Below are positions 49,417 to 63,664 of a stretch of 64,000 nt of DNA, in pieces. The notes beneath the pieces were generated by a model. The model saw only the letters and a list, made by a program, of their open reading frames with translations, was not told the DNA's origin and searched no databases. The stretch's first letter is position 1. Each line of letters starts with the position of its first letter. Source of the DNA: Cytophagales bacterium. GTDB taxonomy: Bacteria > Bacteroidota > Bacteroidia > Cytophagales > Cyclobacteriaceae. The stretch is from NCBI GenBank assembly GCA_017303795.1, contig JAFLBR010000011.1, positions 94,166 to 158,165 of the forward strand, read 5' to 3'. Both the position numbers and the translations under genes were made by a program.

Positions 49417-49421
49417 TTGTG

Positions 49422-49429
49422 CAAAGGTA
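49422..49429 (-). promoter_or_regulatory. -7 promoter element (TACCTTTG) for WG-repeat gene
   Basis: Exact TAnnTTTG ending 5 nt before ATG. Confidence 0.55.
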
Positions 49430-49490
49430 ACTGGCTGTTGCAGTTTTTGTGAACTTTTTCAACAACAGGTTAACAATTGCTTTGGGCGAA

Positions 49491-50075
49491 TTATTTATTC
49501 GACAGATGCAGCAAGTCTTGCGGAGTGTCAAGGTCAATCTCACCATTTTCGAATGCTACGGTGTACACCTGATTGGAAAATTGTTGGATGATTTTACGGG
49601 CACCCGCCTCGTTAGAAACTTGTAACAGGTTAGTAAAAAGTTCTTTTCTGAAAATCGCGGGCACGCCAACCGTATCGGCATAAGCCGAAGCAATAATGGG
49701 TTGACTTTCGGTGTAAAGCTTACTTAATAAAGTATTCAAATGGGTTGTGGTAAGATAAGGTTGATCGCACACCAACACCAGTACAGCCTGTAACTCAGAC
49801 GATTTTTTTAATAAGGTAGTAAGACCAGTCTTCAACGAACTACCCATACCCAACCGCCAATCAGGGTTTAGTACAACTTCGGTTTTAAGATCGGCTATTA
49901 CTTTTTGATGCGCTTCGGCATTGGCGCCCAACACAACTACTACCGGGCAATTGGTTTGCAAGGCTACTTCGGCAGATTTGCGTAGCAGCGGTATTCCATC
50001 TACTTCAACCAATTGTTTGGATTGACCGAGGCGCGAACTATTACCGGCTGCCAGCAAGATGATACCAACCTGCAT
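49491..50075 (-). CDS. Molybdenum cofactor cytidylyltransferase-like (MocA/MobA-like NTP transferase)
   Basis: LLAAGNSSRLGQSKQL, NPDW..GMGSSL, CDQP, DLDTP.D; in unit with xdhC. Confidence 0.85.
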   Translation of the reverse strand: MQVGIILLAAGNSSRLGQSKQLVEVDGIPLLRKSAEVALQTNCPVVVVLGANAEAHQKVIADLKTEVVLNPDWRLGMGSSLKTGLTTLLKKSSELQAVLVLVCDQPYLTTTHLNTLLSKLYTESQPIIASAYADTVGVPAIFRKELFTNLLQVSNEAGARKIIQQFSNQVYTVAFENGEIDLDTPQDLLHLSNK

Positions 50076-50570
50076 TTAGTTAATGGGTTTAGCGGCCTGA
50101 AAATCTTTTTCGCTAATAGTACCATTCTCACTGGAATCTGTATCGACCAGAATTTTCCAAATACCATTTTCTTTGCGAAGCACCACATGAAAGCGCCCGA
50201 AGTAATCCATGGTTTTGCCATCGGCTAACAGGTAAGAAGTTTTATAAACCCCAACTTCTACCGCGAGGTCATTGCTTGCAATGCGTTCAGTAAATCTTAA
50301 CGTAAGTGTGCGTTTGCGTTTTGCATTCAGATCATCCTGATCGCCTTCGGTTTGTGATTTTTTATATTCATCCCAATTCCAAACGGTTTTACCATCGCGG
50401 GCTGAGCGTACCACATCTTTTGAATGTACCGCCATAAACGCATCGGCCTGATGATTATTGAACGATGCAATAAAAGGTTCCCATACATGTTTGTTGATTT
50501 CGGCTTGTGGGGTTTGGGCTTGTACTAATGATGAAAAAAACAAGCAGAGGCAGACGATCCATGTTTTCAT
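50076..50570 (-). CDS. Exported NTF2/SnoaL-like (DUF4440-like) protein
   Basis: Signal peptide; AVEVGVY...GRFHVVLRKENG.WKILVD. Confidence 0.75.
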   Translation of the reverse strand: MKTWIVCLCLFFSSLVQAQTPQAEINKHVWEPFIASFNNHQADAFMAVHSKDVVRSARDGKTVWNWDEYKKSQTEGDQDDLNAKRKRTLTLRFTERIASNDLAVEVGVYKTSYLLADGKTMDYFGRFHVVLRKENGIWKILVDTDSSENGTISEKDFQAAKPIN

Positions 50571-50616
50571 TTTGCGATTGGGTTAATACATCCAAAACGG
50601 AAAGAAAGATTTTGGG

Positions 50617-51762
50617 TTACCGATACACCTGTTTAAATACCTGATCGCTGCCGGGTTCGCGTTGATGGATGGGGCCGTGGTGATCTTTTAAAAATCCGCC
50701 TTCGCGCGTAGTAAATTTTGTTTGGATCTCCGAAATAATGGAAAGGGCAATTTCATCGGGTGCTTCTGCGCCAATGTCCAATCCGATAGGAGCATGAATG
50801 CGTTCAAAATCTTTTTCGGTTAGCGTAATGCCTTCAGCTTTATACTCGGCCAGCATTTTATCGAAACGCTTGCGCGGACCTAAGATGCCAATATAAGGTG
50901 TATGAGACTTCAATAATTTTTTTAACACATCGCGGTCGTACTCATAATTGTGCGACATTAATACGCAGGCCGTGTAGGGTGTAATGTTAAAATCACGATC
51001 AATAAACTCGCGTTGGCATAATGAAAGTTTATCGGCTGTAGGAAAAAAGATAGGGGCAATGTGGGCCACACATTCATCGGTAACGCTCACATTCCAGCCC
51101 AATGTTTTGGCCAGTTCACTTACAGGTCGGGCATCAAAGCCTCCACCAAAAATAATTACCGAAATAGAAGGTTGAATTAATTCGATAAACACTTCTTGCT
51201 CTATACCATGTGCCAGATACTTGTTTGCCTGCGATTTTTTCGAAGTAAAAATTTTCTGCAAGTCAGGCTTTACCAGCGCAGTAAGTTCAGCGCTTTGAAA
51301 TGTGTTTCGGGCTTCACCGGTTTCGGTAAGTAAAAGTTTTTCGCCTACGGCCAATCCATTAAAGATGGTTGCCAATGCCAGAGGTGTTTGCGTTTCCGCG
51401 AAAGCGGCAAATTGCTTAATGGCCTGCGTGTCGTTTACATCTAAAGGTTCAATCAGCACATCGATTACACCATTACAACCTAACCCAATACCCAGGTTTT
51501 GATTGCTCTCTTCGCGGGTATCGTATATAACGGTTACAGGTTTTTTGTCGGCCATTACCTGCCGGGCTTTACGCAAGGCATCGCCTTCCAGGCAACCACC
51601 ACTAATAGAGCCCACCCAGCGGCCATCATCGGTAATGAGCATCCGTGCACCAGGGCTACGGTACGATGACCCGCGTACTTTTACCACGGTGGCCAATGCA
51701 GCTTTGCGTTGGCCGAAGTCTACATTTTTATAAGCTGCTACAATTGCTTTAAAATCCTTCAT
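50617..51762 (-). CDS. XdhC/CoxI family molybdoenzyme maturation factor
   Basis: LATVVKVRGSSYRSPGARM, GSISGGCLE, GLGCNG, MSHNY..D, YIGILGP, PIGLDIGA..P.EIALSI. Confidence 0.93.
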   Translation of the reverse strand: MKDFKAIVAAYKNVDFGQRKAALATVVKVRGSSYRSPGARMLITDDGRWVGSISGGCLEGDALRKARQVMADKKPVTVIYDTREESNQNLGIGLGCNGVIDVLIEPLDVNDTQAIKQFAAFAETQTPLALATIFNGLAVGEKLLLTETGEARNTFQSAELTALVKPDLQKIFTSKKSQANKYLAHGIEQEVFIELIQPSISVIIFGGGFDARPVSELAKTLGWNVSVTDECVAHIAPIFFPTADKLSLCQREFIDRDFNITPYTACVLMSHNYEYDRDVLKKLLKSHTPYIGILGPRKRFDKMLAEYKAEGITLTEKDFERIHAPIGLDIGAEAPDEIALSIISEIQTKFTTREGGFLKDHHGPIHQREPGSDQVFKQVYR

Positions 51763-51769
51763 GTATTAA

Positions 51770-52177
51770 TCATTTCCCCTCCAGTTCTTCGTCTTCTTCA
51801 TTGTGCGAAAAGTAATCGATACCTAATAAATCGCCACTGTATTCTTTAAAGTGTAAAGTATCGCCCACGTGTTTAATCTCGTAATGATCGGAGTGGCAAT
51901 TTACTTTTAAAATTTTGCCATCATCAACTTTAACAAACGCAATCCATTGTTCGTGTTGTTCGGCCTGAATGGCATAATCGTAAGACCGATATTTGCCGTA
52001 GGGCAGGGCATGGGGCCCGGCATTGTTTTTACTGGGCACAAAAACCTTATCTACTATAACGCCCTGCATCAGGTGTGGTTTTGAGAACAAGACATCATAC
52101 ACCACAAGCCCTACCAGAACAAGTGCGCCTACAATTGCCACTAATGCAACACCGGTGGTTAGTCTGTTGGATGCCAT
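51770..52177 (-). CDS. Hypothetical membrane-anchored protein
   Basis: Single N-terminal TM helix then beta-rich domain. Confidence 0.6.
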   Translation of the reverse strand: MASNRLTTGVALVAIVGALVLVGLVVYDVLFSKPHLMQGVIVDKVFVPSKNNAGPHALPYGKYRSYDYAIQAEQHEQWIAFVKVDDGKILKVNCHSDHYEIKHVGDTLHFKEYSGDLLGIDYFSHNEEDEELEGK

Positions 52178-52389
52178 AAGTATGAAGTTTAATTAGAAAG
52201 ATACTTAATAATTTCCAGACCCGAAGCCATGTTTTATCCGGTTTCAGATGCGGTCGTTAAAGCAATCTCCAAACCTAAGGGTTTAATTACAAACGATTGC
52301 AAGAGAGAATTCGCCCTCAACTGAATATTTCTGCACTTGCAATTGGCCGCCATTTGTTACTTTCGCACCCCGTAAAAGATTCAGTAAAC

Positions 52390-54084
52390 ATGATAAAGAC
52401 CTCAGACCTGTTCTCGTACAAAATTGATAAGAAGTATAGCAAACCCGCGGCTTATTTTTCGATGGAGTTTGGTATTGATCAGGCTTTAAAAATTTACAGT
52501 GGCGGCCTTGGTTTTCTGGCGGGTTCGCACATGCGCAGTGCTTACGAGCTTAAACAAAATCTGATTGGCATCGGAATTTTGTGGAAGTATGGCTATTACG
52601 ATCAGGAAAGAAATCAGGACGGAACTTTAAAAGCAGGGTATGTAGAAAAGAACTATTCTTTTCTTACCGATACAGGCATTGTGTTTCCGATTACCATTCA
52701 CAACCACGAAGTGCATGTAAAAGCCTGGTTGCTGAAGCCTGAGGTATTTCATACAGCCCCCATGTTTTTGTTAAGTACCGATTTGCCTGAGAACGACCAC
52801 CTGGCACAAACCATCAGCTATCGGTTGTACGATAGCCACGAGTCGGCCCGCATTGCGCAGTCCATATTATTAGGTAGTGGCGGTGCAAAGCTGTTGGATA
52901 TTTTAGAACGCGAAACAGAGGTGTATCACATGAATGAAGGCCATGCGCTACCGCTGTGCTTTTATTTATTGAATAAATACAATAACGATCTGGAAGAAGT
53001 GCGCAAGCGGGTAGTGTTTACTACGCACACGCCTGAAAAAGCTGGCAATGAAGAACACGGAATTTCATATTTAGATGTGATGAGTTTTTTCCACGGTGTG
53101 CCGAAAGAAACGGTACTGGAATTAGCCGCACCCGATACCAATAATTTAAGTTATACACTGGCTGCGTTGCGCATGTCGCGCATCTCAAATGGAGTTTCGT
53201 CTTTGCACGGGGCGGTGTCGCGTAAAATGTGGACAGGCTTTGATGGCATTTGCGAGATTACTTCCATTACCAATGCGCAGAACAAAACCTTTTGGATGGA
53301 TGCTGCATTGGAAGAACATCATAAGCAAGGAAACGATAAAGGATTAACGCTTCGTAAAAAAGAAATGAAGCGCGAACTCTTTCGCGTGGTGGCAAACCAA
53401 ACCGGTAAAATTTTTGACGAGAACGTAATTACGATTGTATGGGCCAGACGTTTTGCGGCTTATAAACGCGCTAACTTATTGCTTCGCGACTTCGAGCGTT
53501 TTCTTAAGTTGGTAAACAATGCTGAATTTCCAGTGCAAGTGATCTGGGCTGGTAAACCTTACCCGGAAGATTTTGGTGCGATTGGAATCTTTAATGATAT
53601 CTATTGGAAAACAAAAGACTTACCTAATTGCGCTATTCTTACCGGTTACGAAATGGAGCTTTCCGGTTTGCTGAAGCGCGGTTCTGATTTGTGGCTCAAC
53701 ACGCCAAAAATGTTCCGCGAAGCCTCGGGTACTTCGGGCATGACAGCCGCTATGAATGGAAGTGTAAATCTTTCTATTCCCGATGGTTGGATTCCGGAGT
53801 TTTCGAAGCACGGAAAAAATTGCTTTATTATTTCGCCAGCCGAAGCGGATGACGCTGCGGAGCAGGATCGCATCGAAAATGATAACCTGCTTACGTTATT
53901 AGAAAATGAAATTGTGCCGATGTATTACAAAAAGCCGAAACAATGGGTGGCTGTTGTAAAACAAAGTATGGAAGATGTTGTGCCCGCGTTTGACAGCAAC
54001 CGCATGGCGCGTGAGTACTACGAGAAGTTGTATGCTACAACTGAAACGAAGGCTAAGAAAGCAAAAGAGCTGGAGGTGATTTAA
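52390..54084 (+). CDS. glgP: Alpha-glucan phosphorylase family protein (short form), PLP-Lys replaced by Thr
   Basis: Likely ATG 52390; YFSMEFG, YSGGLGFLAG, HMNEGH, FTTHTP, WARRFAAYKRA, EASGTSGMTAAMNG. Confidence 0.88.
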   Translation: MIKTSDLFSYKIDKKYSKPAAYFSMEFGIDQALKIYSGGLGFLAGSHMRSAYELKQNLIGIGILWKYGYYDQERNQDGTLKAGYVEKNYSFLTDTGIVFPITIHNHEVHVKAWLLKPEVFHTAPMFLLSTDLPENDHLAQTISYRLYDSHESARIAQSILLGSGGAKLLDILERETEVYHMNEGHALPLCFYLLNKYNNDLEEVRKRVVFTTHTPEKAGNEEHGISYLDVMSFFHGVPKETVLELAAPDTNNLSYTLAALRMSRISNGVSSLHGAVSRKMWTGFDGICEITSITNAQNKTFWMDAALEEHHKQGNDKGLTLRKKEMKRELFRVVANQTGKIFDENVITIVWARRFAAYKRANLLLRDFERFLKLVNNAEFPVQVIWAGKPYPEDFGAIGIFNDIYWKTKDLPNCAILTGYEMELSGLLKRGSDLWLNTPKMFREASGTSGMTAAMNGSVNLSIPDGWIPEFSKHGKNCFIISPAEADDAAEQDRIENDNLLTLLENEIVPMYYKKPKQWVAVVKQSMEDVVPAFDSNRMAREYYEKLYATTETKAKKAKELEVI

Positions 54085-54980
54085 TGTCTGGGAGTTACGA
54101 TTGTAAATACTCTTGAAATCGTAAACCCAAACCGAATATCACCTTTAAAAAAGTTACCGGTTGTTTCGGAAATGAAGGAACGCTCAGTCATGCCTGTTGA
54201 ATTAGTTACATTCAATTGAAAAACGTGGCCACCGGTTTCAATATCAAATCCTAACGCAAGCGAGTTAGTGGTGCCTGAAATCTGATGCCCTGGAATCTGG
54301 TAGTAGTATTCAGCATTTAAGCTTACCCGCTTATTAAGTTTCATTCTTCCACCGGCACCTACTGAAAAAACATCGTTTGGATCGTTAATGCCAGTTGCCA
54401 GGTTGTAGTGAATAAGTGTAGGCATAAGTTGAAGCGAAAGACTTTCGCTAAACTTTCTTCCAATTAAGAGCTGCGCAGAATAGTACATTTTGGAGGTCAG
54501 GAAATTTTCGCGATCGGGCGTATCAAATTTTAATGACTTATACATAATACCAGCGGCTGCACTTACAGTTATGGGCATGCCACCACTAACCTGGCTTAGT
54601 AGTTTATACTTGGTAAACCCATCAAATTGTTTTTGATAGGTACTTCTACCCACACCAATCATCCAGCGTTTTGTAAGTCCATAATCAAAGCCCATGCGCA
54701 TGGAGGCCTGATCCAATCCAAACAGTTCATAAGCACCATCGCTTAAAAAACCAAACCGGTGCGAGATTCTGAAATCAAGAACTCCTTTCGCCACATTCTC
54801 AACGGAGTGACCATTGATCAAACGCGTGGTTTTGAAAGTGGCTGTTACGTAATCTGGTTTACTTTGCTTTTCTGTTTCCTTATCAAGCATGTCCATTAAA
54901 TCCTGACCATAGCTTGTGGCATGTAGCGATGAAACAAAAAGCAGAATGCCAATGAGTGATAACTTATTATTTAGGCGCAT
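54081..54980 (-). CDS. DUF5777 family outer-membrane beta-barrel
   Basis: Likely start MRLNN (54980); ATFKTTRLINGHS, FRISHRFG, LFGLD, ETGGHVFQL, FGFTISRVF. Confidence 0.85.
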   Translation of the reverse strand: MRLNNKLSLIGILLFVSSLHATSYGQDLMDMLDKETEKQSKPDYVTATFKTTRLINGHSVENVAKGVLDFRISHRFGFLSDGAYELFGLDQASMRMGFDYGLTKRWMIGVGRSTYQKQFDGFTKYKLLSQVSGGMPITVSAAAGIMYKSLKFDTPDRENFLTSKMYYSAQLLIGRKFSESLSLQLMPTLIHYNLATGINDPNDVFSVGAGGRMKLNKRVSLNAEYYYQIPGHQISGTTNSLALGFDIETGGHVFQLNVTNSTGMTERSFISETTGNFFKGDIRFGFTISRVFTIVTPRH

Positions 54981-55515
54981 AAATACAATTGACATTAATC
55001 TCAACGGTTTTGGAAATTTTTTCAGCAACAAGTGCCGGTATTTCAATTTTGTGATCGGATAGTTTGATCACAAACTTCGAGCTTGCTTCAAGTTTGTCAG
55101 GCGAAACGATGATTGTACCCGTTGCTGTCTGGTATTGTTTTACGCCATGTATCGTGAGATCACCCCCAACTTCAATTTCGTAGGTTCCACTAACTTTAAA
55201 GTTCACCTTGCTTAGGTTTAATATTTTTCCGTTGAAGGTGGCTTTGGGGTATTTTGTTGACTCCAGATAGTTTTCATTAAAATGTTCTTCCATGAGTGCT
55301 TTATCGAAGCGAAAACTTTTAACCAGCACGGCAAAAACCAATTCACCTTTTTCTATATCTAGCAGACTCGTTACCTCATTGTTGGTTGCTTCTATGTTTT
55401 CTATTGGTGTTTTCGAAAAGAAAGAGATCTTTCCATTTCTGGTCATGAACACCGGCTGGGCAAAAGAACTCACGCTAATGGCGTAGAGCAATACACTAAC
55501 TAAAACCTGTTTCAT
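54967..55515 (-). CDS. YceI family (polyisoprenoid-binding) exported protein
   Basis: Signal peptide; ISFFSKTP.E.I.A, F.F.KALMEEHFNENY.ES..YPKATF, G.LTIHG. Confidence 0.88.
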   Translation of the reverse strand: MKQVLVSVLLYAISVSSFAQPVFMTRNGKISFFSKTPIENIEATNNEVTSLLDIEKGELVFAVLVKSFRFDKALMEEHFNENYLESTKYPKATFNGKILNLSKVNFKVSGTYEIEVGGDLTIHGVKQYQTATGTIIVSPDKLEASSKFVIKLSDHKIEIPALVAEKISKTVEINVNCIYAPK

Positions 55516-55531
55516 ATCTAAATTTAATTTG

Positions 55532-55894
55532 TTAATTGTTTAAAGCGCCAGCATCAATCCAGGCTTGAATTTTTTGAATATCGCAAGCCGACATTTTACC
55601 GGAATTTTTAGGCATAGCTGAATAACCAGAACTAAAATTGATGCTGCCCATCAGGCTACCATCGTTTACATATTTCATTACGGCCGTATGAGTGTTAAGT
55701 GCAATTCCGGCTGATGGACTGTTACCACCGTGGCAATTGTTACATCGGTTGTTAAGCAAAGGCAGCACATTGCCACTAAATGTACTTGTAGTTAATGGTG
55801 TACAGTTTGCTGATTCCGGATAAAGCGTGGCTTCGTTATCGTAATAACATCCGGTTAGCAAGAGTAAGGCAAACAAAGAGATCTTATTCATCAT
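55532..55894 (-). CDS. Monohaem c-type cytochrome lipoprotein
   Basis: Lipobox LTGC; CNNCH; distal AMPK; ends WIDAGALNN. Confidence 0.85.
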   Translation of the reverse strand: MMNKISLFALLLLTGCYYDNEATLYPESANCTPLTTSTFSGNVLPLLNNRCNNCHGGNSPSAGIALNTHTAVMKYVNDGSLMGSINFSSGYSAMPKNSGKMSACDIQKIQAWIDAGALNN

Positions 55895-55904
55895 ACCAAA
55901 GAAG

Positions 55905-56621
55905 TTAATTGTTAAGTGCCCCGGCATTTATCCAGGATTTGATCTGATTAATCTCGCACTCAGAAAGTTTAGTGCCTTGTGGCATGGGCGAAAAGCCAGT
56001 AGCATGCGTAATGCTTCCCACTAATTTTCCATTTGTAACCTGCGCTTTAATGGAGGTATAATCGGCCAGGTTTATATTGCCACCTAACGAGCCGGGTTTA
56101 TGGCAACCCACACATTGGTTGTTTATGATGGGCTTAACAGTTAATGCGAACGTAAATTGATCTGGATTACATGCGCAATTACAGTTTACGGTGTTTTTAG
56201 CGCCTTGGTTAATCCACGCAGCAATGGAATCTTTTTGTGCTTGTGTAAGTGGAGCATCGGGTGGCATTCTATCTTCACCTGATTCAAAAAGTACTTTATA
56301 CAATTTACTTTTACTGGCATTGCCTGGAGAAATTCCTTTTCTGACAATATTGTTGTAATTGTTTAGCGTGTAACCTTCTTTATGCGAGGTAGCATCATGA
56401 CACTTACTTCGGGCGCAAGATGAAATGAAGATGGGGAGTACACTACTTTCAAAACACACGTTTCCATCTGTTACACACCCCGGAGTGTTTGGCTCGCCCT
56501 CGTTTAACGTGGTTGGATCAATAAAAGGATCATGAACGCAACCGTTAAGTAAAACCAGAATCAAGACCAATAAACCAATGCTAATTCTAAAGCCATAGAC
56601 TAGTTTGGATTTCGCTTTCAT
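55905..56621 (-). CDS. Dihaem c-type cytochrome lipoprotein (planctomycete-type domain + second domain)
   Basis: Lipobox LNGC; CARSKCH (CX4CH) with RMPP; CVGCH with PMPQ; ends WINAGALNN. Confidence 0.85.
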   Translation of the reverse strand: MKAKSKLVYGFRISIGLLVLILVLLNGCVHDPFIDPTTLNEGEPNTPGCVTDGNVCFESSVLPIFISSCARSKCHDATSHKEGYTLNNYNNIVRKGISPGNASKSKLYKVLFESGEDRMPPDAPLTQAQKDSIAAWINQGAKNTVNCNCACNPDQFTFALTVKPIINNQCVGCHKPGSLGGNINLADYTSIKAQVTNGKLVGSITHATGFSPMPQGTKLSECEINQIKSWINAGALNN

Positions 56622-56632
56622 ACTGTTAAGAA

Positions 56633-57040
56633 TCATTTTTTGATTTGAGCAACACTTGTATTTGTTATAATTACATCTGAGAGAAATCCCTTGCAGATTC
56701 CTTTCAGCATTACAAATTCATTTTTCTTAAGATTGGCTTTTGAATCTTGCATGGTGCATTGGACACCAAACCCATCACCTTCTGCCGCAAGCATTACAAC
56801 CGGAATATTTTCCTGATTGTGTGTGATGTTTACAATCTTGCCAGACACCACAACTGTTTTGTCGAGGTAAAGTAGGTTGGCAGAATCTTCGTTAAGCTGG
56901 AATTGCCTGAGAAGTTCGGCTGCGGAAATTGCTATTCCCTGCTCGTCCTCAGGATTGCGGTGTGGTTTGTTATAGGTTATATAAACCGAGAAACTAATAG
57001 CCAGCAGAACAAACAAGGCAATACTACTTCTAGCTTTCAT
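56633..57040 (-). CDS. Membrane-anchored OB-fold protein (tRNA_anti-like)
   Basis: N-terminal TM; YNKPHR, ISA.EL...F..NE..AN..YLDK.V.VSGKI, V.LKG.C.G. Confidence 0.78.
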   Translation of the reverse strand: MKARSSIALFVLLAISFSVYITYNKPHRNPEDEQGIAISAAELLRQFQLNEDSANLLYLDKTVVVSGKIVNITHNQENIPVVMLAAEGDGFGVQCTMQDSKANLKKNEFVMLKGICKGFLSDVIITNTSVAQIKK

Positions 57041-57090
57041 TTTGAACCGATCAAAACCTTTTGGCTTTGATTTTCAAAGAATGAAAATGA

Positions 57091-57130
57091 TTCTGAATTG
57101 ATCTTGAATTAATTCTGAATGGATTCTCAA
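57091..57130 (-). promoter_or_regulatory. Four 11-bp-phased direct repeats (putative OmpR/PhoB-family binding site)
   Basis: Plus strand TTCTGAA (57091), TCTTGAA (57102), TTCTGAA (57113), TTCTCAA (57124). Confidence 0.7.
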
Positions 57131-58398
57131 GAATTAGCGGAAAAGCAAACCTGAAAATGATGCCTTGAATTGGAGTAATAATAGTTTATTGAAAAACTTT
57201 CGACTTCACAGATTTTTTTCAGAATGGCCAACCCAAGACCACTTCCCTGCGAGCTTCTTGATTCCTGATTAAACCGATTGAAGATTTTTTCGGGCGACTT
57301 AAGTGGCGAGCCATTATTAAGTACGGTTAAAGTTTCTTTTTCGATTTTAATCAACACATCGGTTTTAAAAGTAGCGTACCGTAGGGCATTTGAAATCAGG
57401 TTGCTAATTAAAATTTCGAAGAGTATGGGGTTTGCTTTGATAACTAAATCTTTAGCCACATCTACAGTAATATTTATTTCGCGTGTAAATGCAAGTTGTT
57501 GATAGTCCTCAATGGTTCGATTCAGCACAGCAAGCACTGAAACTTCGTCTGTAGCTATAAATTGCCGGTTTTCTATTTTCGATAGCAAGAGAAGATTTTT
57601 ATTCAATCTTGCAATCCGATCGGTTGTATCCAGCAGGTTGCTGATTAATTCTGCTTGTTCTTTAGTGAGCGGTGTGGTTTGAATCAGCAGTTCCAGTTTC
57701 GATCGGAAAATGGCAATTGGAGTTTGTAATTCATGCGAAGCATTTTCGGTAAATTCTTTTTGATTGAGATAGGCATCTCTACTTTTGTTCACCAATAAAA
57801 CAACTGCTTTACTCAGATCGCGAAATTCGGTAGTGGAAGAATGTGGAAGGCTAATAAAAGTATCTTCATCGATTTTATATTGCTTAAGCTTGTCTAGAAT
57901 TTTATAGAATGGATCCCAAACTTCATGCGATAGCTTTCGATTAATCAGGACAAAGCCGGTAAGCATGAGAATGAGTAAAACAACCTGAATAGCTACAATT
58001 GCAGTAACCAACCGCGTGTTACCGACAATCGACTCGCGAATAATTAGTTCGTAGTTTTTATTTTGAATTTGAATGCCGGTGCGAAGCGCCCTGAAGGGAA
58101 TGTTTATACCTTCCAGACTATCGTATTGAGTATAAGTGTAAACTGAATCAGAAACCGGCCATGCTTTAGCTTCCGATAATTTAAATTCTTCGTTAATTAA
58201 TTGAAAGAGCTGAATCTCCTTTTCTGTTTCCAACTGTTTTACAATATGATTGAAGTTAGCTTTGTGATGAAAAAGCTCTTCCTCCATTTCGTGAATAAAA
58301 AGTTGGCGGATAGCGATGTAAAAGAGCGGGGTGCTAACAACTAATAGGAGCGTGGAATAGAGGATATAATTTTTTACCGTCCGCTTGAGCAGCTTCAT
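57127..58398 (-). CDS. Sensor histidine kinase
   Basis: Two TM helices; H-box NASHELQTP; N-box NLISNALRY; G-box GSGLGLAI. Confidence 0.95.
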   Translation of the reverse strand: MKLLKRTVKNYILYSTLLLVVSTPLFYIAIRQLFIHEMEEELFHHKANFNHIVKQLETEKEIQLFQLINEEFKLSEAKAWPVSDSVYTYTQYDSLEGINIPFRALRTGIQIQNKNYELIIRESIVGNTRLVTAIVAIQVVLLILMLTGFVLINRKLSHEVWDPFYKILDKLKQYKIDEDTFISLPHSSTTEFRDLSKAVVLLVNKSRDAYLNQKEFTENASHELQTPIAIFRSKLELLIQTTPLTKEQAELISNLLDTTDRIARLNKNLLLLSKIENRQFIATDEVSVLAVLNRTIEDYQQLAFTREINITVDVAKDLVIKANPILFEILISNLISNALRYATFKTDVLIKIEKETLTVLNNGSPLKSPEKIFNRFNQESRSSQGSGLGLAILKKICEVESFSINYYYSNSRHHFQVCFSANS

Positions 58399-59069
58399 AC
58401 TTCAAATTTATAACCTAATCCGTAAATAGTTTTGATATAGTCTGCACATCCGGCCTCGGTTAATTTTTTCTTTAGGTTTTTCATGTGTGCATAAATGAAG
58501 TCGAAATTATCAAATACTTCAGCTACATCGCCAGACAGATGTTCGGCTATAGCATTTTTTGAAACCACCCGGTTTTTGTTCGAAACCAAAAATAACAGCA
58601 GGTCATACTCTTTTCGGGTAAGATCAACCAGCGTTTCGTTTACCGATACAACTTTACCCAATAAGTCGATGATTAACTCATGGAGCGTAAGGAGATTATT
58701 ACCACCAAATCGTTTGCGCCTGATTACGGCTGAAATGCGGGCTCCAAGTTCTGACAAATGAAAGGGTTTTACCAGATAATCATCGGCACCAAGGTTTAAG
58801 CCTTTAATCTTATCGTCAAGCGAATTTCGGGCAGAGATAATGATTACGCCATCTGCCTTCCCATCTATTTTCAGGGCCTCCAAAACAGTTAACCCGTTTC
58901 CATCGGGCAGGTTAATATCAAGTAGAATACAGTCATAATCGTGAAGCACAATTTTTTCAGTTGCCTGTTGGGCGGAATAGGCCACTTCGCACACGTAGCT
59001 TTCCTGCCGCAGATATTGAACTATGCTTTTTGCAAGCTCACGTTCGTCCTCAACAATTAGTACTTTCAT
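58395..59069 (-). CDS. OmpR/PhoB family response regulator
   Basis: VEDE, LLDINLPDG, GADDYLVKPF, LTRKEYDLL, IKTIYGLGY. Confidence 0.96.
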   Translation of the reverse strand: MKVLIVEDERELAKSIVQYLRQESYVCEVAYSAQQATEKIVLHDYDCILLDINLPDGNGLTVLEALKIDGKADGVIIISARNSLDDKIKGLNLGADDYLVKPFHLSELGARISAVIRRKRFGGNNLLTLHELIIDLLGKVVSVNETLVDLTRKEYDLLLFLVSNKNRVVSKNAIAEHLSGDVAEVFDNFDFIYAHMKNLKKKLTEAGCADYIKTIYGLGYKFEV

Positions 59070-59108: not shown

Positions 59109-61073
59109 TCATTTTTTTAGCAAACCTTTTTTAAATGCTAAACTAGAATTTTGATACCAACTTATTGCTTCTTTGGTCACTCGTAGTGTATTTAAGGAGT
59201 CTGTTAAGCTCTGAGTAAAATCACCTTTCTGGTTTAACAAATGTAGCTCTACTTTTTGTTGTGGCTTAAGAACAGTCAGACTATCTCCTCTTAAATAGCC
59301 CAAGGTCTGGTAGGTGCTGATGAAGGCCCGCGCTTCATCGGGATTGATCCTGAAAATATCATAACCATAGAACTTGCTTTGGTATGAAAAATTTAAGAGG
59401 CCCAGTATTGTGGGGGCAACATCAATCTGACTCATTAATGCATTGTTAACCTGTGGGCGGACGTTACCCGGCCCCCAAATCATCATAGGTATCTTGTATT
59501 TGTTTGGAGGTAAATCAACCTTGCCTGCGCTGGACGCACAATGATCGGCAACAATGATAAACAGTGTGTTTTTGTACCATGGTTTAAGGCTTGCCTCTCG
59601 TAAAAACTTGCCAATAGCATAGTCTGTATATTTAACAGCTCCATCGCGATTTGTGTGAGAGGGGATGTCGATTCTTCCTTCCGGGTAGGTATAGGGCCTA
59701 TGATTGGAGGTTGTCATAATATGGGCAAAAATGAGTTGATTTTCGTTTGCAGATTTATCAATTTCCTTGATGCTCAACTCAAACAGATTTTCATCGGCAA
59801 CCCCCCAGATATTTTCATAATCAATCTCGTTATCTGGTATGGCTGTCCGGTCAATTACTTCGTAACCATTTTTTTCAAAGAAGTAATTCATATTATCAAA
59901 ATATCCGTAACCACCATATATGTATTTACAGTGATAACCTTTTTCCCGAAAGACACTGCCAAGTGAAAACAAATTTTCATTGTTTGGTCTACGAACAATC
60001 GACTGACCGGGTGTTGGGGGGATTGATAGCGTTAAGGCCTCCAGGCCACGTACGGTTCGGGTTCCGGTTGCAAACAGGTTTGTAAACACTGTGCTGTGTG
60101 CAGCTAGCGAGTCTAAGTGAGGTGTAATTCTCTTTTTGTTGCCAAATAGTCCTAGAAATTCAGCGCTAAGACTTTCAACACTTATAAGTACTACATTCCA
60201 TTTATTTTCATGGTTCTTATTGATTACCTGATGCAGTGGGAATTTTTTTTGAAATTCATTAGTGGATGAGTATTCAAATTTTGATTGCAAAATTGCAGTG
60301 GCCTCGTTGCTATCAATGTTTGCGTAGAATTCTTCATAGTTTAATTCGTTGTTCCGGTAGGCAGCAAAAAGATCATAGATGCCATTGCCAGAAAGTTCAT
60401 TCACATACCGATTGGTGGAGAACCGATGCGTGTTTACATCTACAGTAAAAAACACCAAAACAACAATCCCTGTCCAGAGAGCGGTTAAGGCACCGCGTTG
60501 CCAAAAATCTGGTTCTGAGTATGAAACTATTTTTTTTAAAAAACGATGAACTTGCCAGGTCAATAGGAGAACTATAGTAAGTTGGCCAGGTACGATCCAT
60601 TCAATTGGGTATGATTGTTTGATATTACCAATCACCTCGGTGGTGTAAATTAGATAATCAACAGCAATAAAGTTGAAGCGTGAATTAAACTCGCTCCAGA
60701 AAAAATATTCAGCCCCTGCTGAAAATACGATGATGAAAGCTAACAAGAAGTATAAGAAAAGTTGAGTATAGTAAAGCCCCTTGCTTCGTACGAAGCTGTC
60801 CGGAGTTAACCACAGGAGTACTATAATTGGAAGAAAAAAATAGCTTGCGTTAGCTAAATCAAAAAACAGTCCGACCAATAGTATAAGCAACACATTGGAA
60901 ATAGATCCATCCAGTTGACTCCATGAACTAATCATTAAAACCAGTCGGACAATAAATGATATAGCAATGAGGGTGATTAGGAGAGCAAGAACTAACCGAT
61001 AACGTTTGGTTTGCATTAGCCCCAATAGCAGTCCTGGGCTTATTGCTTTTTTTGTTTGATTCAGACCTTTCAT
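59109..61073 (-). CDS. LTA-synthase-family / alkaline phosphatase-superfamily membrane transferase
   Basis: About 5 TM helices then VESLS, ATGTRTVRG (catalytic Thr), TTSNHRPY, VADH; start may be 61073 or 61016. Confidence 0.88.
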   Translation of the reverse strand: MKGLNQTKKAISPGLLLGLMQTKRYRLVLALLITLIAISFIVRLVLMISSWSQLDGSISNVLLILLVGLFFDLANASYFFLPIIVLLWLTPDSFVRSKGLYYTQLFLYFLLAFIIVFSAGAEYFFWSEFNSRFNFIAVDYLIYTTEVIGNIKQSYPIEWIVPGQLTIVLLLTWQVHRFLKKIVSYSEPDFWQRGALTALWTGIVVLVFFTVDVNTHRFSTNRYVNELSGNGIYDLFAAYRNNELNYEEFYANIDSNEATAILQSKFEYSSTNEFQKKFPLHQVINKNHENKWNVVLISVESLSAEFLGLFGNKKRITPHLDSLAAHSTVFTNLFATGTRTVRGLEALTLSIPPTPGQSIVRRPNNENLFSLGSVFREKGYHCKYIYGGYGYFDNMNYFFEKNGYEVIDRTAIPDNEIDYENIWGVADENLFELSIKEIDKSANENQLIFAHIMTTSNHRPYTYPEGRIDIPSHTNRDGAVKYTDYAIGKFLREASLKPWYKNTLFIIVADHCASSAGKVDLPPNKYKIPMMIWGPGNVRPQVNNALMSQIDVAPTILGLLNFSYQSKFYGYDIFRINPDEARAFISTYQTLGYLRGDSLTVLKPQQKVELHLLNQKGDFTQSLTDSLNTLRVTKEAISWYQNSSLAFKKGLLKK

Positions 61074-61110
61074 ACTTGCGAGCAGAATATCACGCAAGGA
61101 AAAGTCAAAT

Positions 61111-61127
61111 TCTGAAGAAAGTCTGAA
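61111..61127 (-). promoter_or_regulatory. Two 11-bp-phased TCTGAA repeats upstream of LTA-synthase gene
   Basis: TCTGAA at 61111 and 61122; same motif and orientation as 57091-57130. Confidence 0.6.
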
Positions 61128-61205
61128 TTGGACTCACCTTACGGGTAAGCCTTGTCAGACTGCTATATGTATTAGATGGTTTTATCGGCCACTATGCTAA
61201 ACTTA

Positions 61206-61739
61206 CTACTTCACCATGTGGGCTGTCACATTCAATTTAACCAACACCTCATCGGCCATACCTAAATTATTGCCACCCACCTTAAAGTGTTGACGGTTCA
61301 GGGTAAACTCACCTTTAAATATTTTAGTGGTGGTTCCGGTTGTTGTAAACGAAATGATTATCTCTTTCTTAATTCCCTTTATTGTGAGCGTTCCGATCAA
61401 CTGACTTGGCGCACCATTTTTACCGATAGTAAATTGATTTGATTTAAATGTAATAACTGGAAATTTTTCGGTGAAAAAATACTCTTCTTTCTTCAGGTGT
61501 TTATTTCGTAGGCCTATTCCGGTATTGATGGTATTGGCGTCCACTTGAATATTGAAGTAACTACTTTCAGGTTGTAGTTCATTAATGTAAATCTCACCTT
61601 TCAAACCGTGTAAAGTTCCTTCTACCGATACACCGAAGTTTTTAATTACAAACTGCACTGCTCCAATGCTATCAACCGGAGTGTAATGTTGCGCTGACGC
61701 TTGAATGCATAAAAGCAGAAAAATCCAAATTAAACGCAT
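61206..61739 (-). CDS. YceI family exported protein
   Basis: Signal MRLIWIF...ASA; VQFVIKNFG..V.G, INTGIGLRNKHLK.E.YF...FP.I.F, G.LTIKG; alternative GTG start 61766. Confidence 0.88.
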   Translation of the reverse strand: MRLIWIFLLLCIQASAQHYTPVDSIGAVQFVIKNFGVSVEGTLHGLKGEIYINELQPESSYFNIQVDANTINTGIGLRNKHLKKEEYFFTEKFPVITFKSNQFTIGKNGAPSQLIGTLTIKGIKKEIIISFTTTGTTTKIFKGEFTLNRQHFKVGGNNLGMADEVLVKLNVTAHMVK

Positions 61740-61765
61740 CAGGTTGGTGAGCGTAAAAGAATACA

Positions 61766-62179
61766 CTAATTCAACATGGCTCTGGCAAACTCAACCGAGA
61801 AAGCCTCGCACCAGATGTGCGCGTAGGGATATTCGCTTAGATTAATGTTGGCTGGTAATGCGTAAGATTGTTTTCCGGTTGTGGATTTAAGAACGCCTAA
61901 CCGGATAAAAGTTTTAGCGCCTATATCTTTGCTTAGATACACTTTTAAGTCGGGGCCGTTTTGCGATTGAAATGGATCCAGCACCAAGGTATATTTTCCA
62001 TCTTGTTCATAAATGGTGGCGGTTCCGCTTACGGTATGATTAACGCCCATAATCACACCCATGTTAATTTTTGTGGCCATGCCGGTCATAAAATTATCAT
62101 CTACAGGCGTTGTGGGAGTAACTTCTTCCACTCCACAACCTAACGCAAGTACAAAAATGAGTATTGAAAGTTTTTTCAT
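61766..62179 (-). CDS. DM13 domain lipoprotein
   Basis: Lipobox LALGC; HTVSG.A, NGPDLKVYLS, LG.LK...G.Q.Y, IWCEAFSV.F. Confidence 0.88.
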   Translation of the reverse strand: MKKLSILIFVLALGCGVEEVTPTTPVDDNFMTGMATKINMGVIMGVNHTVSGTATIYEQDGKYTLVLDPFQSQNGPDLKVYLSKDIGAKTFIRLGVLKSTTGKQSYALPANINLSEYPYAHIWCEAFSVEFARAMLN

Positions 62180-62184
62180 AACAG

Positions 62185-62880
62185 TTAAAAATTTTTATAA
62201 AGGCCAAATGCAAACAACAAAGATTTATCGCGAAAGCGGCTGTTGGGTTCTGGTGTTTGTTGCACTTCGGTGTCGGTAGTGTATTCGGTAAACAAAAATT
62301 GAAGTCCGCTTTTTATGCCCCAGTTGTCTTTCAATTGGTATTTTAGAAACAACTCTGAGTTTAAGGAACCGAGATCGTTATCGCTTATCAGTAATGCATT
62401 AAAAGCTGTTGGTTTGGCTTGTTCCTGCTGGCCGAACACACCATTGATGTAGCTTCCGCTTTTCTTGCTTCCAAAGGAAAAACCAAGTGCATCAATATTA
62501 AACCCAACCGAAATTTTGTTTGACACCTGATACCCTAAATGAATGGCGATATTCAAGGCATTAACCTGTGGCGATTGAATAAGAAATGTATCGATGTTAG
62601 CGGCAATATTTTCTTTAAAGATTACCAGAGGTCCGGTACTGCCGGAGGTGAGTTTTGCCGGTGCAGTAATGTAATACTGATTCTGGCCCAGGTAAGTGGT
62701 AAACCGACCCGCAATTCCGATTTCAAATTTTTTCTTTGCGCCTAATTGCCAGGCGTACGTGTACATAGCAGATAATGAACCTTCCCGATGGCCAACAGCT
62801 CCGGTTACATCTCCATACTTTATCTGACTCCATGAAAGAAATGGAACAAGTGAAATCAGGAGGATCAATACTTTCTTCAT
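62185..62880 (-). CDS. Hypothetical small outer-membrane beta-barrel protein
   Basis: Signal MKKVLILL...SWS from ATG 62880; amphipathic strands; C-terminal LYKNF. Confidence 0.7.
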   Translation of the reverse strand: MKKVLILLISLVPFLSWSQIKYGDVTGAVGHREGSLSAMYTYAWQLGAKKKFEIGIAGRFTTYLGQNQYYITAPAKLTSGSTGPLVIFKENIAANIDTFLIQSPQVNALNIAIHLGYQVSNKISVGFNIDALGFSFGSKKSGSYINGVFGQQEQAKPTAFNALLISDNDLGSLNSELFLKYQLKDNWGIKSGLQFLFTEYTTDTEVQQTPEPNSRFRDKSLLFAFGLYKNF

Positions 62881-62925
62881 ACCACTAAATATAGATTGAA
62901 AGTAAAGGGTAGGCGGCTTTTGTGA

Positions 62926-62941
62926 TGTCGTGGTACCGACA
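62926..62941. promoter_or_regulatory. Crp/CooA-type operator TGTCG-N6-CGACA
   Basis: Perfect 5+5 palindrome TGTCG TGGTAC CGACA, 45 nt upstream of ATG 62880 and 4 nt past the Crp stop. Confidence 0.7.
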
Positions 62942-62945
62942 AAAG

Positions 62946-63620
62946 TCACTTCAAACTCTCCAAATCCCGAATTAAAATTTTCTTCCTGTCGAAGTTGATC
63001 AGGTTTTTTTCTTTCAATTCGTTTAGAATGGTGGTAACCGTTTGGCGTGAGGTTCCTGTAAGGGCTGCAATGTCTTTGTGTGTAAGGCGCGTGGGGATCA
63101 TGGTTTCGTAACCAACTTTCTTTCCTTTCCACGCTGCAGTGTCTTTTAAAAATTCAATCACACGGGTGCGGGCATCTTTAAATACCAGCAACTCAAGTTT
63201 GCGCTCTAATTTCATCAGGCGTAAGCCAATCAACTTAAGTAGTTTAAAGCTAAGCTCTTTGTTCTCCTTCATCAGGTTTTTTAATTCTTCCAGACTTAAC
63301 GGGCAAATAGTGGTGTTCTCCATCGCTTGCGCGAAATCTTTACGTTGGTCTTCACCTGCCAATGCTAACTCTCCAAAAATTTCTCCCGTGGTAAGTATGG
63401 AAGTAATTACTTCAGTTCCGGTTTCCTGATAATGACCAATCCGCACCCGGCCATTCACAATCATGTAAATGTGTGTGGCTTGTTCGCTGGGAAAATAAAT
63501 GTATTGATCTTTTTTATACGTGTTATACGTATGCTTTTCGGCCATTGTCTTTACCTTGTGGGGGCAAAGAATCTGGTACAGGTTTACGCTTTCAAAATAC
63601 CAAAGTGCCGAAGTATTCAT
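62946..63620 (-). CDS. Crp/Fnr family transcriptional regulator
   Basis: cNMP domain GEIFGELAL...R; HTH LTHKDIAALTGTSRQTVT; N-terminal LCPHK. Confidence 0.93.
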   Translation of the reverse strand: MNTSALWYFESVNLYQILCPHKVKTMAEKHTYNTYKKDQYIYFPSEQATHIYMIVNGRVRIGHYQETGTEVITSILTTGEIFGELALAGEDQRKDFAQAMENTTICPLSLEELKNLMKENKELSFKLLKLIGLRLMKLERKLELLVFKDARTRVIEFLKDTAAWKGKKVGYETMIPTRLTHKDIAALTGTSRQTVTTILNELKEKNLINFDRKKILIRDLESLK

Positions 63621-63664
63621 ATTCAAACTGAGTGTTAATTACGGAAATTTAAAAGAGAAAGTTA

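Follow-up and report, generated by a model that had tools for sequence, protein, structure and literature searches.

A conserved gene cluster of lipoprotein cytochromes, YceI and a DUF5777 barrel in Bacteroidota, a candidate outer-membrane redox module

Gene Content and Organization of the Locus

The window, i.e., the whole stretch of 64,000 nucleotides analyzed here, originates from a Cytophagales-like bacterium of activated sludge (contig JAFLBR010000011.1 of assembly GCA_017303795.1). Its minus strand bears five co-oriented genes at 54081-57040, encoding an OB-fold protein, a dihaem and a monohaem c-type cytochrome lipoprotein, a YceI-family protein and an outer-membrane beta-barrel of the DUF5777 family. 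Our results support that these five genes are a conserved functional unit across Bacteroidota. In gene order, they are:

56633..57040, minus strand: OB-fold protein, tRNA_anti-like family (PF12869, E = 4e-22), 135 aa, first gene of the operon
55905..56636, minus strand: dihaem c-type cytochrome lipoprotein (Pfam PSCyt1, E = 7e-07; Cytochrome_CBB3, E = 1e-10), lipobox LLNGC
55532..55894, minus strand: monohaem c-type cytochrome lipoprotein (weak Pfam CBB3 and PSCyt1 matches), lipobox LLTGC
54967..55515, minus strand: YceI-family protein (PF04264, E = 1.9e-15)
54081..54980, minus strand: DUF5777 outer-membrane beta-barrel (PF19089, E = 8e-94)

With the preferred starts, the OB and dihaem genes overlap by 4 nt and the YceI and DUF5777 genes by 14 nt, and the monohaem gene is separated by 10 nt from the dihaem gene and by 16 nt from the YceI gene; this agrees with the tight or overlapping packing that a preliminary description of this DNA had already reported. 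Its assignment of YceI and DUF5777 to the operon holds as well, both Pfam matches being above the gathering scores (58 bits against a cutoff of 23.7 for YceI, which matched the E. coli YceI equivalog model weakly, and 313.9 bits against 23.1 for DUF5777). Concerning the starts, the monohaem gene most likely begins at ATG 55894 (MMNKISLFALLLLTGC...) rather than at the upstream ATG 55927, and the DUF5777 gene most likely at ATG 54980 (MRLNNK...) rather than at TTG 55046; gene calls elsewhere place the start of the dihaem gene five codons later.

The OB protein has a hydrophobic anchor at its N-terminus. The YceI protein has a type I signal peptide and no lipobox, and is predicted to be periplasmic and lipid-binding. 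Comparison of the window OB, YceI and dihaem protein sequences with solved structures gave nothing useful, and the OB profile retrieved 3f1z as its sole sequence relative there, with a weak match (E = 0.015). Low-depth fragments of the operon occur in wastewater metatranscriptomes, with contigs crossing the OB/dihaem and YceI/DUF5777 junctions; such fragments indicate presence and not regulation, and DNA carry-over may contribute to them. A scan for sigma-70 promoters and terminators gave fewer promoter-like matches than shuffled sequences did, with a consensus that is ill-suited to Bacteroidota.

Conservation and Synteny across Bacteroidota

One genome per species was surveyed with two conserved DUF5777 peptides as query, and at least 597 stretches were found to encode a relative. 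The best 80 of them, 49-86% identical to the window DUF5777, were taken with 9-kb flanks, and their neighbors were scored by searching the six-frame open reading frames with the window proteins. These loci belong to Cytophagales, Chitinophagales, Saprospiraceae, Lewinellaceae, Flavobacteriales, Sphingobacteriia and Bacteroidales (including Lentimicrobium). Co-occurrence of DUF5777 with cytochrome and YceI genes in other genomes, which the preliminary description had proposed as a check of its reading, was evident: a cytochrome gene of either type neighbors DUF5777 in 76/80 loci and YceI in 72/80, followed by the monohaem type (71/80), OB (67/80) and the dihaem type (62/80), and several loci without a partner gene sit on truncated contigs. 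The linkage of DUF5777 with cytochrome, YceI and OB genes is far in excess of chance. Gene order varies, the commonest being dihaem-monohaem-OB-YceI-DUF5777, and the position of OB differs among loci, as it comes first in the window and its relatives and last in some others. Since the linkage survives this reordering, it points to selection for linkage and thus to a functional unit.

Bacteroidota of soil, sludge and freshwater widely carry the cluster, which is present in at least about 600 species-level genomes, and cultured carriers are Segetibacter koreensis DSM 18137, Taibaiella koreensis and Adhaeribacter terreus. Homologues are listed as hypothetical or "cytochrome c," those of the dihaem protein solely as the latter; no mention of DUF5777 was found in the literature searched. 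Finally, one locus (L017, CALRQJ020000005.1) is labelled "Methylophilus rhizosphaerae," a betaproteobacterium, and bears a Chitinophagaceae-type cluster with a barrel 57% identical to that of the window and Chitinophagaceae-like neighbors; it is probably a mislabelled or mis-binned metagenome-assembled genome.

Cytochrome Lipoproteins

The dihaem protein consists of two PSCyt1-like domains, the first with a CX4CH motif (CARSKCH) and the second with a CXXCH motif (CVGCH), and in each of them the haem motif is followed by a conserved MP(P/Q) and a W..G helix. In the alignment of homologues the lipobox Cys, the haem motifs and the Met are kept at 95% or more, and the Pfam CBB3 match reaches 42 bits against a cutoff of 27. 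The monohaem protein has the motif CNNCH and a Met in AMPK, and its family alignment (A4) is invariant at C16, C51, C54, H55, M94, P95, W112 and G116. The profile of this family matches cytochrome c6 (3dr0, E = 3e-4), the c subunits of cytochrome bc1 and CcoP. In the c6 alignment the monohaem CXXCH falls onto the haem-binding Cys-Cys-His and the invariant Met onto the Met axial ligand, which argues for class-I His/Met electron carriers and not for catalytic multihaem proteins. By these sequence features, both lipid-anchored proteins appear to be genuine c-type haem proteins of class I, as our results support. The downstream Met residues (RMPP, PMPQ, AMPK) that had been put forward as axial ligands are invariant or nearly so, and of the three haem motifs listed with them CVGCH and CNNCH are CXXCH sites, whereas CARSKCH is a CX4CH site, so that canonical CXXCH is not present in every domain. 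The combination of CX4CH and CX2CH is found in 49/64 dihaem homologues, with CAxSGCH as the form of domain 1; CX4CH also occurs in 24/71 monohaem-type proteins, and CX6-8CH in a few.

The two lipoboxes, recognized by pattern, have a Cys that is invariant in the alignments. In the dihaem family this lipid Cys begins the stretch C-(K/V)-H-(E/D)-P (C-V-H-D-P in the window, CKHEP in homologues), which leads into a variable linker rich in Gly, Thr, Asp and Pro. In the monohaem family it begins an acidic and almost invariant tail, CYYDxEExLYP...C (C-Y-Y-D-N-E in the window, CYYDVEEE in homologues). Surface-export signals of Bacteroidota lipoproteins, known as LES, lie at positions +2 to +6 and read C-x-K-(D/E)2, SDDDD or SDDFE (PMC5080379). 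Neither lipoprotein matches the published consensus exactly, and the acidic monohaem tail shows a partial likeness. The dihaem versions of Bacteroidales are about 350 aa long (L052 at 7529-8578; L055 at 7523-8569), and that of L052 has an FN3 domain in the linker.

The DUF5777 Barrel

A first AlphaFold model from 29 close sequences was poor (pLDDT 60), with generic fold matches, and was superseded by an AlphaFold2 model from an alignment of 126 diverse sequences (pLDDT 83.6, pTM 0.76). The latter has 12 strands, an N-terminal helix at residues 28-37 and a conserved N-terminal segment, with about 270 residues in the mature protein. Its Foldseek matches are 12-14-stranded barrels, namely FapF, NanC (TM 0.70, normalized on the target), the COG4313 channel, a Vibrio oligogalacturonate porin and autotransporter beta-domains. 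The NanC/KdgM, FapF, COG4313 (Pput2725) and autotransporter barrels thus share strand number and size with DUF5777, but they have no sequence similarity to it, and DUF5777 stands apart by sharing an operon with cytochromes and by a conservation far above that of typical porins. No enzyme was found by Foldseek with the model, and the DUF5777 profile had no sequence relative among solved structures. A PagL-like lipid A deacylase was considered and rejected, as the Pfam match (E = 9e-4) is below the cutoff, the His-x-Ser catalytic pair is absent and there is no structural match to PagL.

The conservation of DUF5777 is striking for an outer-membrane protein, and it is the slowest-evolving component of the cluster. 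Averaged over the columns of the 126-sequence alignment, identity is 60%, and 61 positions are invariant. The median identity of homologues to the window protein reaches 53% with DUF5777, compared with 46% (YceI), 37-39% (cytochromes) and 32% (OB). Strand-parity analysis placed on the lumen side the invariant residues Asp69, Arg75, Arg95, Asp99, Asp120, Lys124, Lys126, Gln170, Lys176, Gln184, Arg212, Lys214, Asn222, Glu224, Asp246, Glu248 and Gln255, along with many glycines; His 74, 191 and 252 are invariant too. Conservation extends to the ETGGH turn, extracellular loops 1 and 6 and the N-terminal residues 47-66, and the periplasmic turn ETGGHVFQ does not vary at all. An invariant periplasmic turn and N-terminal segment are as expected of a docking surface. 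In the model, conserved segments are likely to plug the lumen, and DUF5777 has the appearance of a barrel that is selective or plugs itself and keeps a fixed docking face on its periplasmic side, unlike an open porin. A separate protein (P0346, 615 aa), present in two JGI contigs, has two tandem DUF5777 domains, by duplication and fusion or by a merge in gene calling.

These features bear directly on the analogy with porin-cytochrome conduits drawn in the preliminary description. The barrels of MtrCAB, PioAB and Pcc have about 20-26 strands (26 in MtrB) and sheath deca- or multihaem cytochromes. A true conduit of this kind, with a haem chain inside the barrel wiring the periplasm to the surface, would fit the proximity of the barrel gene to lipoprotein cytochrome genes, a likeness to Mtr, Pio and Pcc that is kept in those 76 loci with a cytochrome neighbor. 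However, neither the large barrel nor the cytochrome of at least eight haems is found here: the barrel has the size of NanC or FapF, and with 12 strands DUF5777 would be unable to sheath a cytochrome as MtrB does; the two small cytochromes carry two haem motifs and one; the lumen is charged and occupied by conserved polar residues; and no similarity to the MtrB/PioB families was found in family libraries or in the search of solved structures. Strand number and haem count rule out an Mtr-type sheath, and we regard a conduit of this kind as extremely improbable. The module itself and its redox character stand, without the Mtr/Pcc analogy, and so does the earlier caveat on the low haem count: three haems speak for a single-substrate role more than for a wire.

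A further idea is that DUF5777 is an assembly or anchoring device for the cytochrome lipoproteins, with a logic like that of Slam translocons or barrel-threaded lipoproteins, in which the acidic N-terminal tail of the monohaem protein would sit in the basic DUF5777 lumen. Such a role would account for the near invariance of the tail and for the invariant Lys and Arg of the lumen, and the fold resembles polypeptide-conducting 12-stranded barrels (FapF, autotransporters). But a Foldseek TM of about 0.5 is generic for 12-stranded barrels, YceI and the regulation of the cluster would stay unexplained, and the idea is pure inference; we hold it to be very unlikely.

Natural Fusion with a Haem-Motif Domain

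Exhaustive search with the DUF5777 profile gave 2,445 clusters at 50% identity, 818 of them at E<=1e-30. Among the proteins retrieved, P0390 (456 aa; L085, 959-2329) carries a choice-of-anchor-V/Reeler-like domain N-terminal to DUF5777 (NCBIfam NF041895, E = 8e-29; Pfam Reeler, 3e-08), and this domain contains a CXXCH motif, CTECH. The fusion recurs in independent assemblies. Directly before the fusion gene come a dihaem gene, truncated at the end of the contig, and then a monohaem lipoprotein gene; neither YceI nor OB intervenes. The same anchor-V/Reeler-like domain is encoded as a separate gene inside the cluster of L063 (5378-6295) and beside that of L016 (5407-6627). Fusion and neighbors together indicate that the pairing of a haem-motif protein with DUF5777 is the invariant core of the system, and that the partner sits at the periplasmic N-terminus of the barrel. 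In eukaryotic ferric reductases, Reeler domains occur together with DOMON and cytochrome b561 (PMC10691727).

The layout of P0390 recalls Cyc2. The Cyc2 protein of iron oxidizers is a fused cytochrome-porin, and the likeness lies in one haem motif per barrel and in a CXXCH domain fused N-terminal to it; in contrast, the haem proteins of the window are separate lipoproteins, and DUF5777 is smaller than Cyc2 and unrelated to it by sequence. The fusion is one point in favor of a redox-coupled handling of metals or polar solutes, in which DUF5777 would be a selective channel for an ion such as Fe(II), Mn(II), Cu(I) or a small oxyanion and the tethered cytochromes would alter the oxidation state of the substrate at the periplasmic mouth, as in a Cyc2 whose parts are separate. 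A lumen lined by invariant Asp, Glu, Arg, Lys and Gln, and the three invariant His, would suit it. So would a partial match of the sensor kinase upstream of the operon to heavy-metal sensor kinases, and SCO1/SenC and MOSC genes nearby in related contigs. The kinase match, however, is below cutoffs and the similarity generic, no metal-binding motif was recognized in family-library scans of the window proteins, and YceI and the YceI-linked sensor kinases would be left without a role. We consider metal handling distinctly unlikely.

Regulation

The following features lie upstream of the operon and share its strand:

57127..58398, minus strand: sensor histidine kinase (HisKA and HATPase_c), directly upstream of the operon
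58395..59069, minus strand: OmpR/PhoB-family response regulator (Response_reg and Trans_reg_C), best partial NCBIfam matches CtrA, PmrA and RppA
57085..57130, minus strand: three to four direct repeats (A/C)TTCAGAAT spaced by 11 bp, in the interval from the kinase stop to the OB start
59109-61097, minus strand: LtaS/OpgB-like membrane protein of the sulfatase superfamily, heading the regulator and kinase genes
61108..61128, minus strand: two TTCAGA-type boxes with 11-bp spacing, preceding the LtaS/OpgB-like gene; kept in L001 (1750-1770)

The kinase matches the NCBIfam PorY-family model with 413 bits (cutoff 350), and the same regulator-kinase pair precedes the cluster in the closest relatives of the window locus, L001, L002, L005 and L007. 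The repeat array has the same position and sequence in L001 (~5690-5730), L005 (~6860-6895) and L007 (~6700-6750), the remaining spacer having diverged, and exact ATTCAGAAT occurs five times in the window against 0.75 expected. The (A/C)TTCAGAAT repeats are probably binding sites of the adjacent OmpR-family regulator, which by this reading would directly control the operon and co-regulate an envelope-modifying enzyme. The boxes before the LtaS/OpgB-like gene suggest autoregulation together with co-regulation of that enzyme. The LtaS/OpgB-like protein is closest to LtaS/OpgB phosphoglycerol transferases and to the uncharacterized Vibrio protein VP1736 (3lxq, E = 1e-69); its gene stands between a second YceI gene and the regulator genes, and is present in L001 and absent from that place in the near-identical L002.

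An alternative system was identified in 35/80 loci (among L011-L019 and L024-L082), consisting of YceI, a propeller kinase and a LytTR regulator. The propeller kinase is about 965 aa long, with Reg_prop propellers, Y_Y_Y and a LytS-type His_kinase domain, and in these 35 loci an extra YceI gene lies immediately upstream in 29 and the LytTR regulator immediately downstream in 32. The trio suggests a YceI-assisted sensor. Two unrelated sensor types, one of them with its own YceI, imply that expression answers a specific signal, possibly a lipophilic one. In the literature searched, nothing was found on YceI with LytTR systems, and on YceI with cytochrome c in Bacteroidetes only an iron-limitation transcriptome listing a YceI gene.

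Comparison with Known Systems and Proposed Mechanism

The closest precedents combine a YceI-family protein with a haem protein. In Burkholderia cenocepacia, the YceI-family lipocalin BcnA is paired with the cytochrome b561 LcoA, as are yceI and yceJ in E. coli; the two are widely conserved as a pair, ubiquinone-8 is bound by a YceI homologue, and the mechanism proposed is the cycling of a bound isoprenoid quinone (PMC9113575). Our cluster likewise ties, by gene linkage, a predicted periplasmic lipid binder of the YceI family to haem-based electron-transfer proteins, but the partner in BcnA-LcoA is an inner-membrane dihaem b561, and here it is two lipid-anchored c-type cytochromes with a barrel and an OB protein.

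One rival reading is an envelope antioxidant system, a Bacteroidota counterpart of BcnA-LcoA, in which YceI would hold a quinol or capture oxidized lipid, the c-type cytochromes would take the place of cytochrome b561 in re-reducing it, and DUF5777 would open access to the lipids of the outer membrane so that lipid peroxyl radicals or oxidative damage are quenched. The YceI-plus-cytochrome pairing that defines BcnA-LcoA, for which quinone cycling has been proposed (PMC9113575), is a point in its favor. The predicted regulon of the window includes the LtaS/OpgB-like envelope-modifying enzyme, the regulator resembles PmrA-type envelope regulators (below family cutoffs), and the distribution in soil, sludge and freshwater fits as well. 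Nevertheless, no cytochrome b561 gene is present among the cluster genes or the recurrent neighbors, the system is also found in genomes of Bacteroidales and Lentimicrobium, some of which have it without YceI, and the polar lumen of the barrel offers no obvious path for lipids. We judge an antioxidant role unlikely.

The second precedent comes from Cellvibrio japonicus and Saccharophagus degradans, whose proteins Cbp2D and Cbp2E serve extracytoplasmic electron transfer and consist of a YceI-like X158 domain that binds ubiquinone-8, an FN3 spacer and small c-type cytochrome domains (PMC8981238). YceI-like proteins and small c-type cytochromes are common to both systems, and FN3 recurs in some Bacteroidales dihaem homologues; however, Cbp2D and Cbp2E are single secreted multidomain proteins with the cellulose-binding CBM2, whereas here the genes are separate, a barrel is present and there is no carbohydrate-binding module. 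No solved cytochrome of the Cbp2D/E kind appeared among the matches of the monohaem profile to PDB sequences.

As Cbp2D/E bring YceI-like and c-type cytochrome domains together outside the cell (PMC8981238), they are a precedent for extracellular electron transfer by shuttle, the quinone-shuttle reading of the preliminary description, where periplasmic cytochromes would reduce a small diffusible or lipid-bound quinone that crosses the outer membrane at DUF5777 and passes its electrons to external Fe(III), Mn(IV), humic substances or a surface enzyme. The DUF5777-Reeler fusion and a DM13 protein encoded nearby fit this picture, both domains being companions of eukaryotic extracellular ferric reductases (PMC10691727), and the acidic N-terminus of the monohaem protein is partly like the surface-export signal (PMC5080379). 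On the other hand, CYYD(N/V)E differs from the canonical C-x-K-(D/E)2 or SDDDD, no terminal reductase or multihaem protein is present, the cluster is tightly controlled by its regulator and unlinked to respiratory genes, and the barrel appears plugged. Such a shuttle to the exterior seems to us decidedly unlikely.

The unit is real, widespread and uncharacterized, and it is best filed as a variant of the barrel-plus-cytochrome and YceI-plus-cytochrome modules. Our preferred reading, to which we give a probability of roughly 45%, is an inducible outer-membrane redox module that works with a carrier and not as a haem wire. Its observed basis is the set of genes, their conservation as a cluster, the motifs for haem and its ligands, the size and polarity of the barrel, the linkage to regulators and the natural fusion of a haem-motif domain with the barrel. 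In the arrangement that we infer, with its protein locations and contacts, YceI ligand, direction of electron flow and target, the two small class-I (His/Met) c-type cytochromes, one dihaem (including the CX4CH site) and one monohaem, would be tethered by lipid and work with a periplasmic YceI that bears a lipophilic, redox-active ligand, for which isoprenoid quinone is the precedent. DUF5777, a small and largely plugged 12-stranded barrel, would be the fixed docking and gating point in the outer membrane, on which the lipid-anchored cytochromes would dock, and the membrane-anchored OB protein would probably tether or organize the assembly from the side of the inner membrane. Single electrons would be exchanged between the cytochromes of the general periplasmic pool and a target that lies within the outer membrane or immediately outside it, and the electron carrier would be a small molecule instead of a chain of haems. 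A dedicated two-component system would induce the module, here through the OmpR-type regulator acting on the TTCAGAAT repeats, and in many lineages through the propeller kinase with its YceI. By analogy with the YceI proteins that bind ubiquinone-8 and act together with cytochromes (PMC9113575, PMC8981238), the quinone-shuttle variant is a plausible hypothesis.

Several observations weigh against the carrier-based module. A charged invariant lumen fits a polar or ionic substrate, or a plug, better than the passage of a lipid-like carrier. No gene for a membrane quinol dehydrogenase or a cytochrome b lies in the cluster. YceI does not adjoin DUF5777 in 8/80 loci, several of which are on truncated contigs, nor in the fusion variant, and this makes the cytochrome-plus-barrel pair, and not YceI, the invariant core. 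The CX4CH motif is, in these organisms, a putative haem-attachment site, and the conservation figures describe the best 80 of at least 597 genome hits, all with 49% identity or more to the window barrel.

Bacteroidota dominate in soils, sludge, waters and guts, and to our knowledge no outer-membrane redox machinery has been described for them. If electrons do reach or cross the outer membrane by way of this module, the cluster would provide a genetic handle on how Bacteroidota cope with oxidants, metals and humic substances. In addition, DUF5777, the CX4CH cytochrome family and the tRNA_anti-like OB family would each gain a function, and the theme of YceI paired with a cytochrome would be carried over from the inner membrane to the outer one. 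A bolder and unlikely extension is that it represents a third, phylum-wide architecture for bringing reducing power into or across a Gram-negative outer membrane, next to the haem wire of Mtr/Pcc and the fused cytochrome-porin Cyc2, made of a small plugged barrel with a protein-bound lipophilic carrier or a single docked haem, and of YceI-dependent two-component sensing.

Neighboring Genes and a Second Module

Upstream of the operon and its regulators, on the same strand, lies a second module with a YceI gene, so that the theme of the operon occurs twice in the window:

61206..63626, minus strand: second module, comprising the four genes below
62946-63626, minus strand: Crp-family regulator
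62185-62880, minus strand: barrel-like protein, 231 aa, ending in ...GLYKNF, no Pfam or NCBIfam match
61766-62179, minus strand: DM13 ("electron transfer") lipoprotein (Pfam DM13, 2e-18)
61206-61766, minus strand: second YceI (Pfam YceI, 5e-28)

The two YceI paralogues of the window are remotely alike. A common origin of DUF5777 and the second barrel-like protein was rejected (hhalign probability 0.9%). In the related contigs L001 and L002, the SCO1/SenC and MOSC genes lie beyond the Crp gene. On the other side of the operon, the flanks at 47320-52177 and 52297-54084 bear genes for a WG-repeat protein, a MobA-like NTP transferase, DUF4440, XdhC/CoxI and a small unannotated membrane protein, and a glycogen-phosphorylase-like gene, convergent with DUF5777, overlaps the DUF5777 stop by 4 nt. 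Finally, the barrel-like protein of the second module led to 69 metagenome loci, where it is adjoined by DM13 in 48 and by YceI in at least 19.

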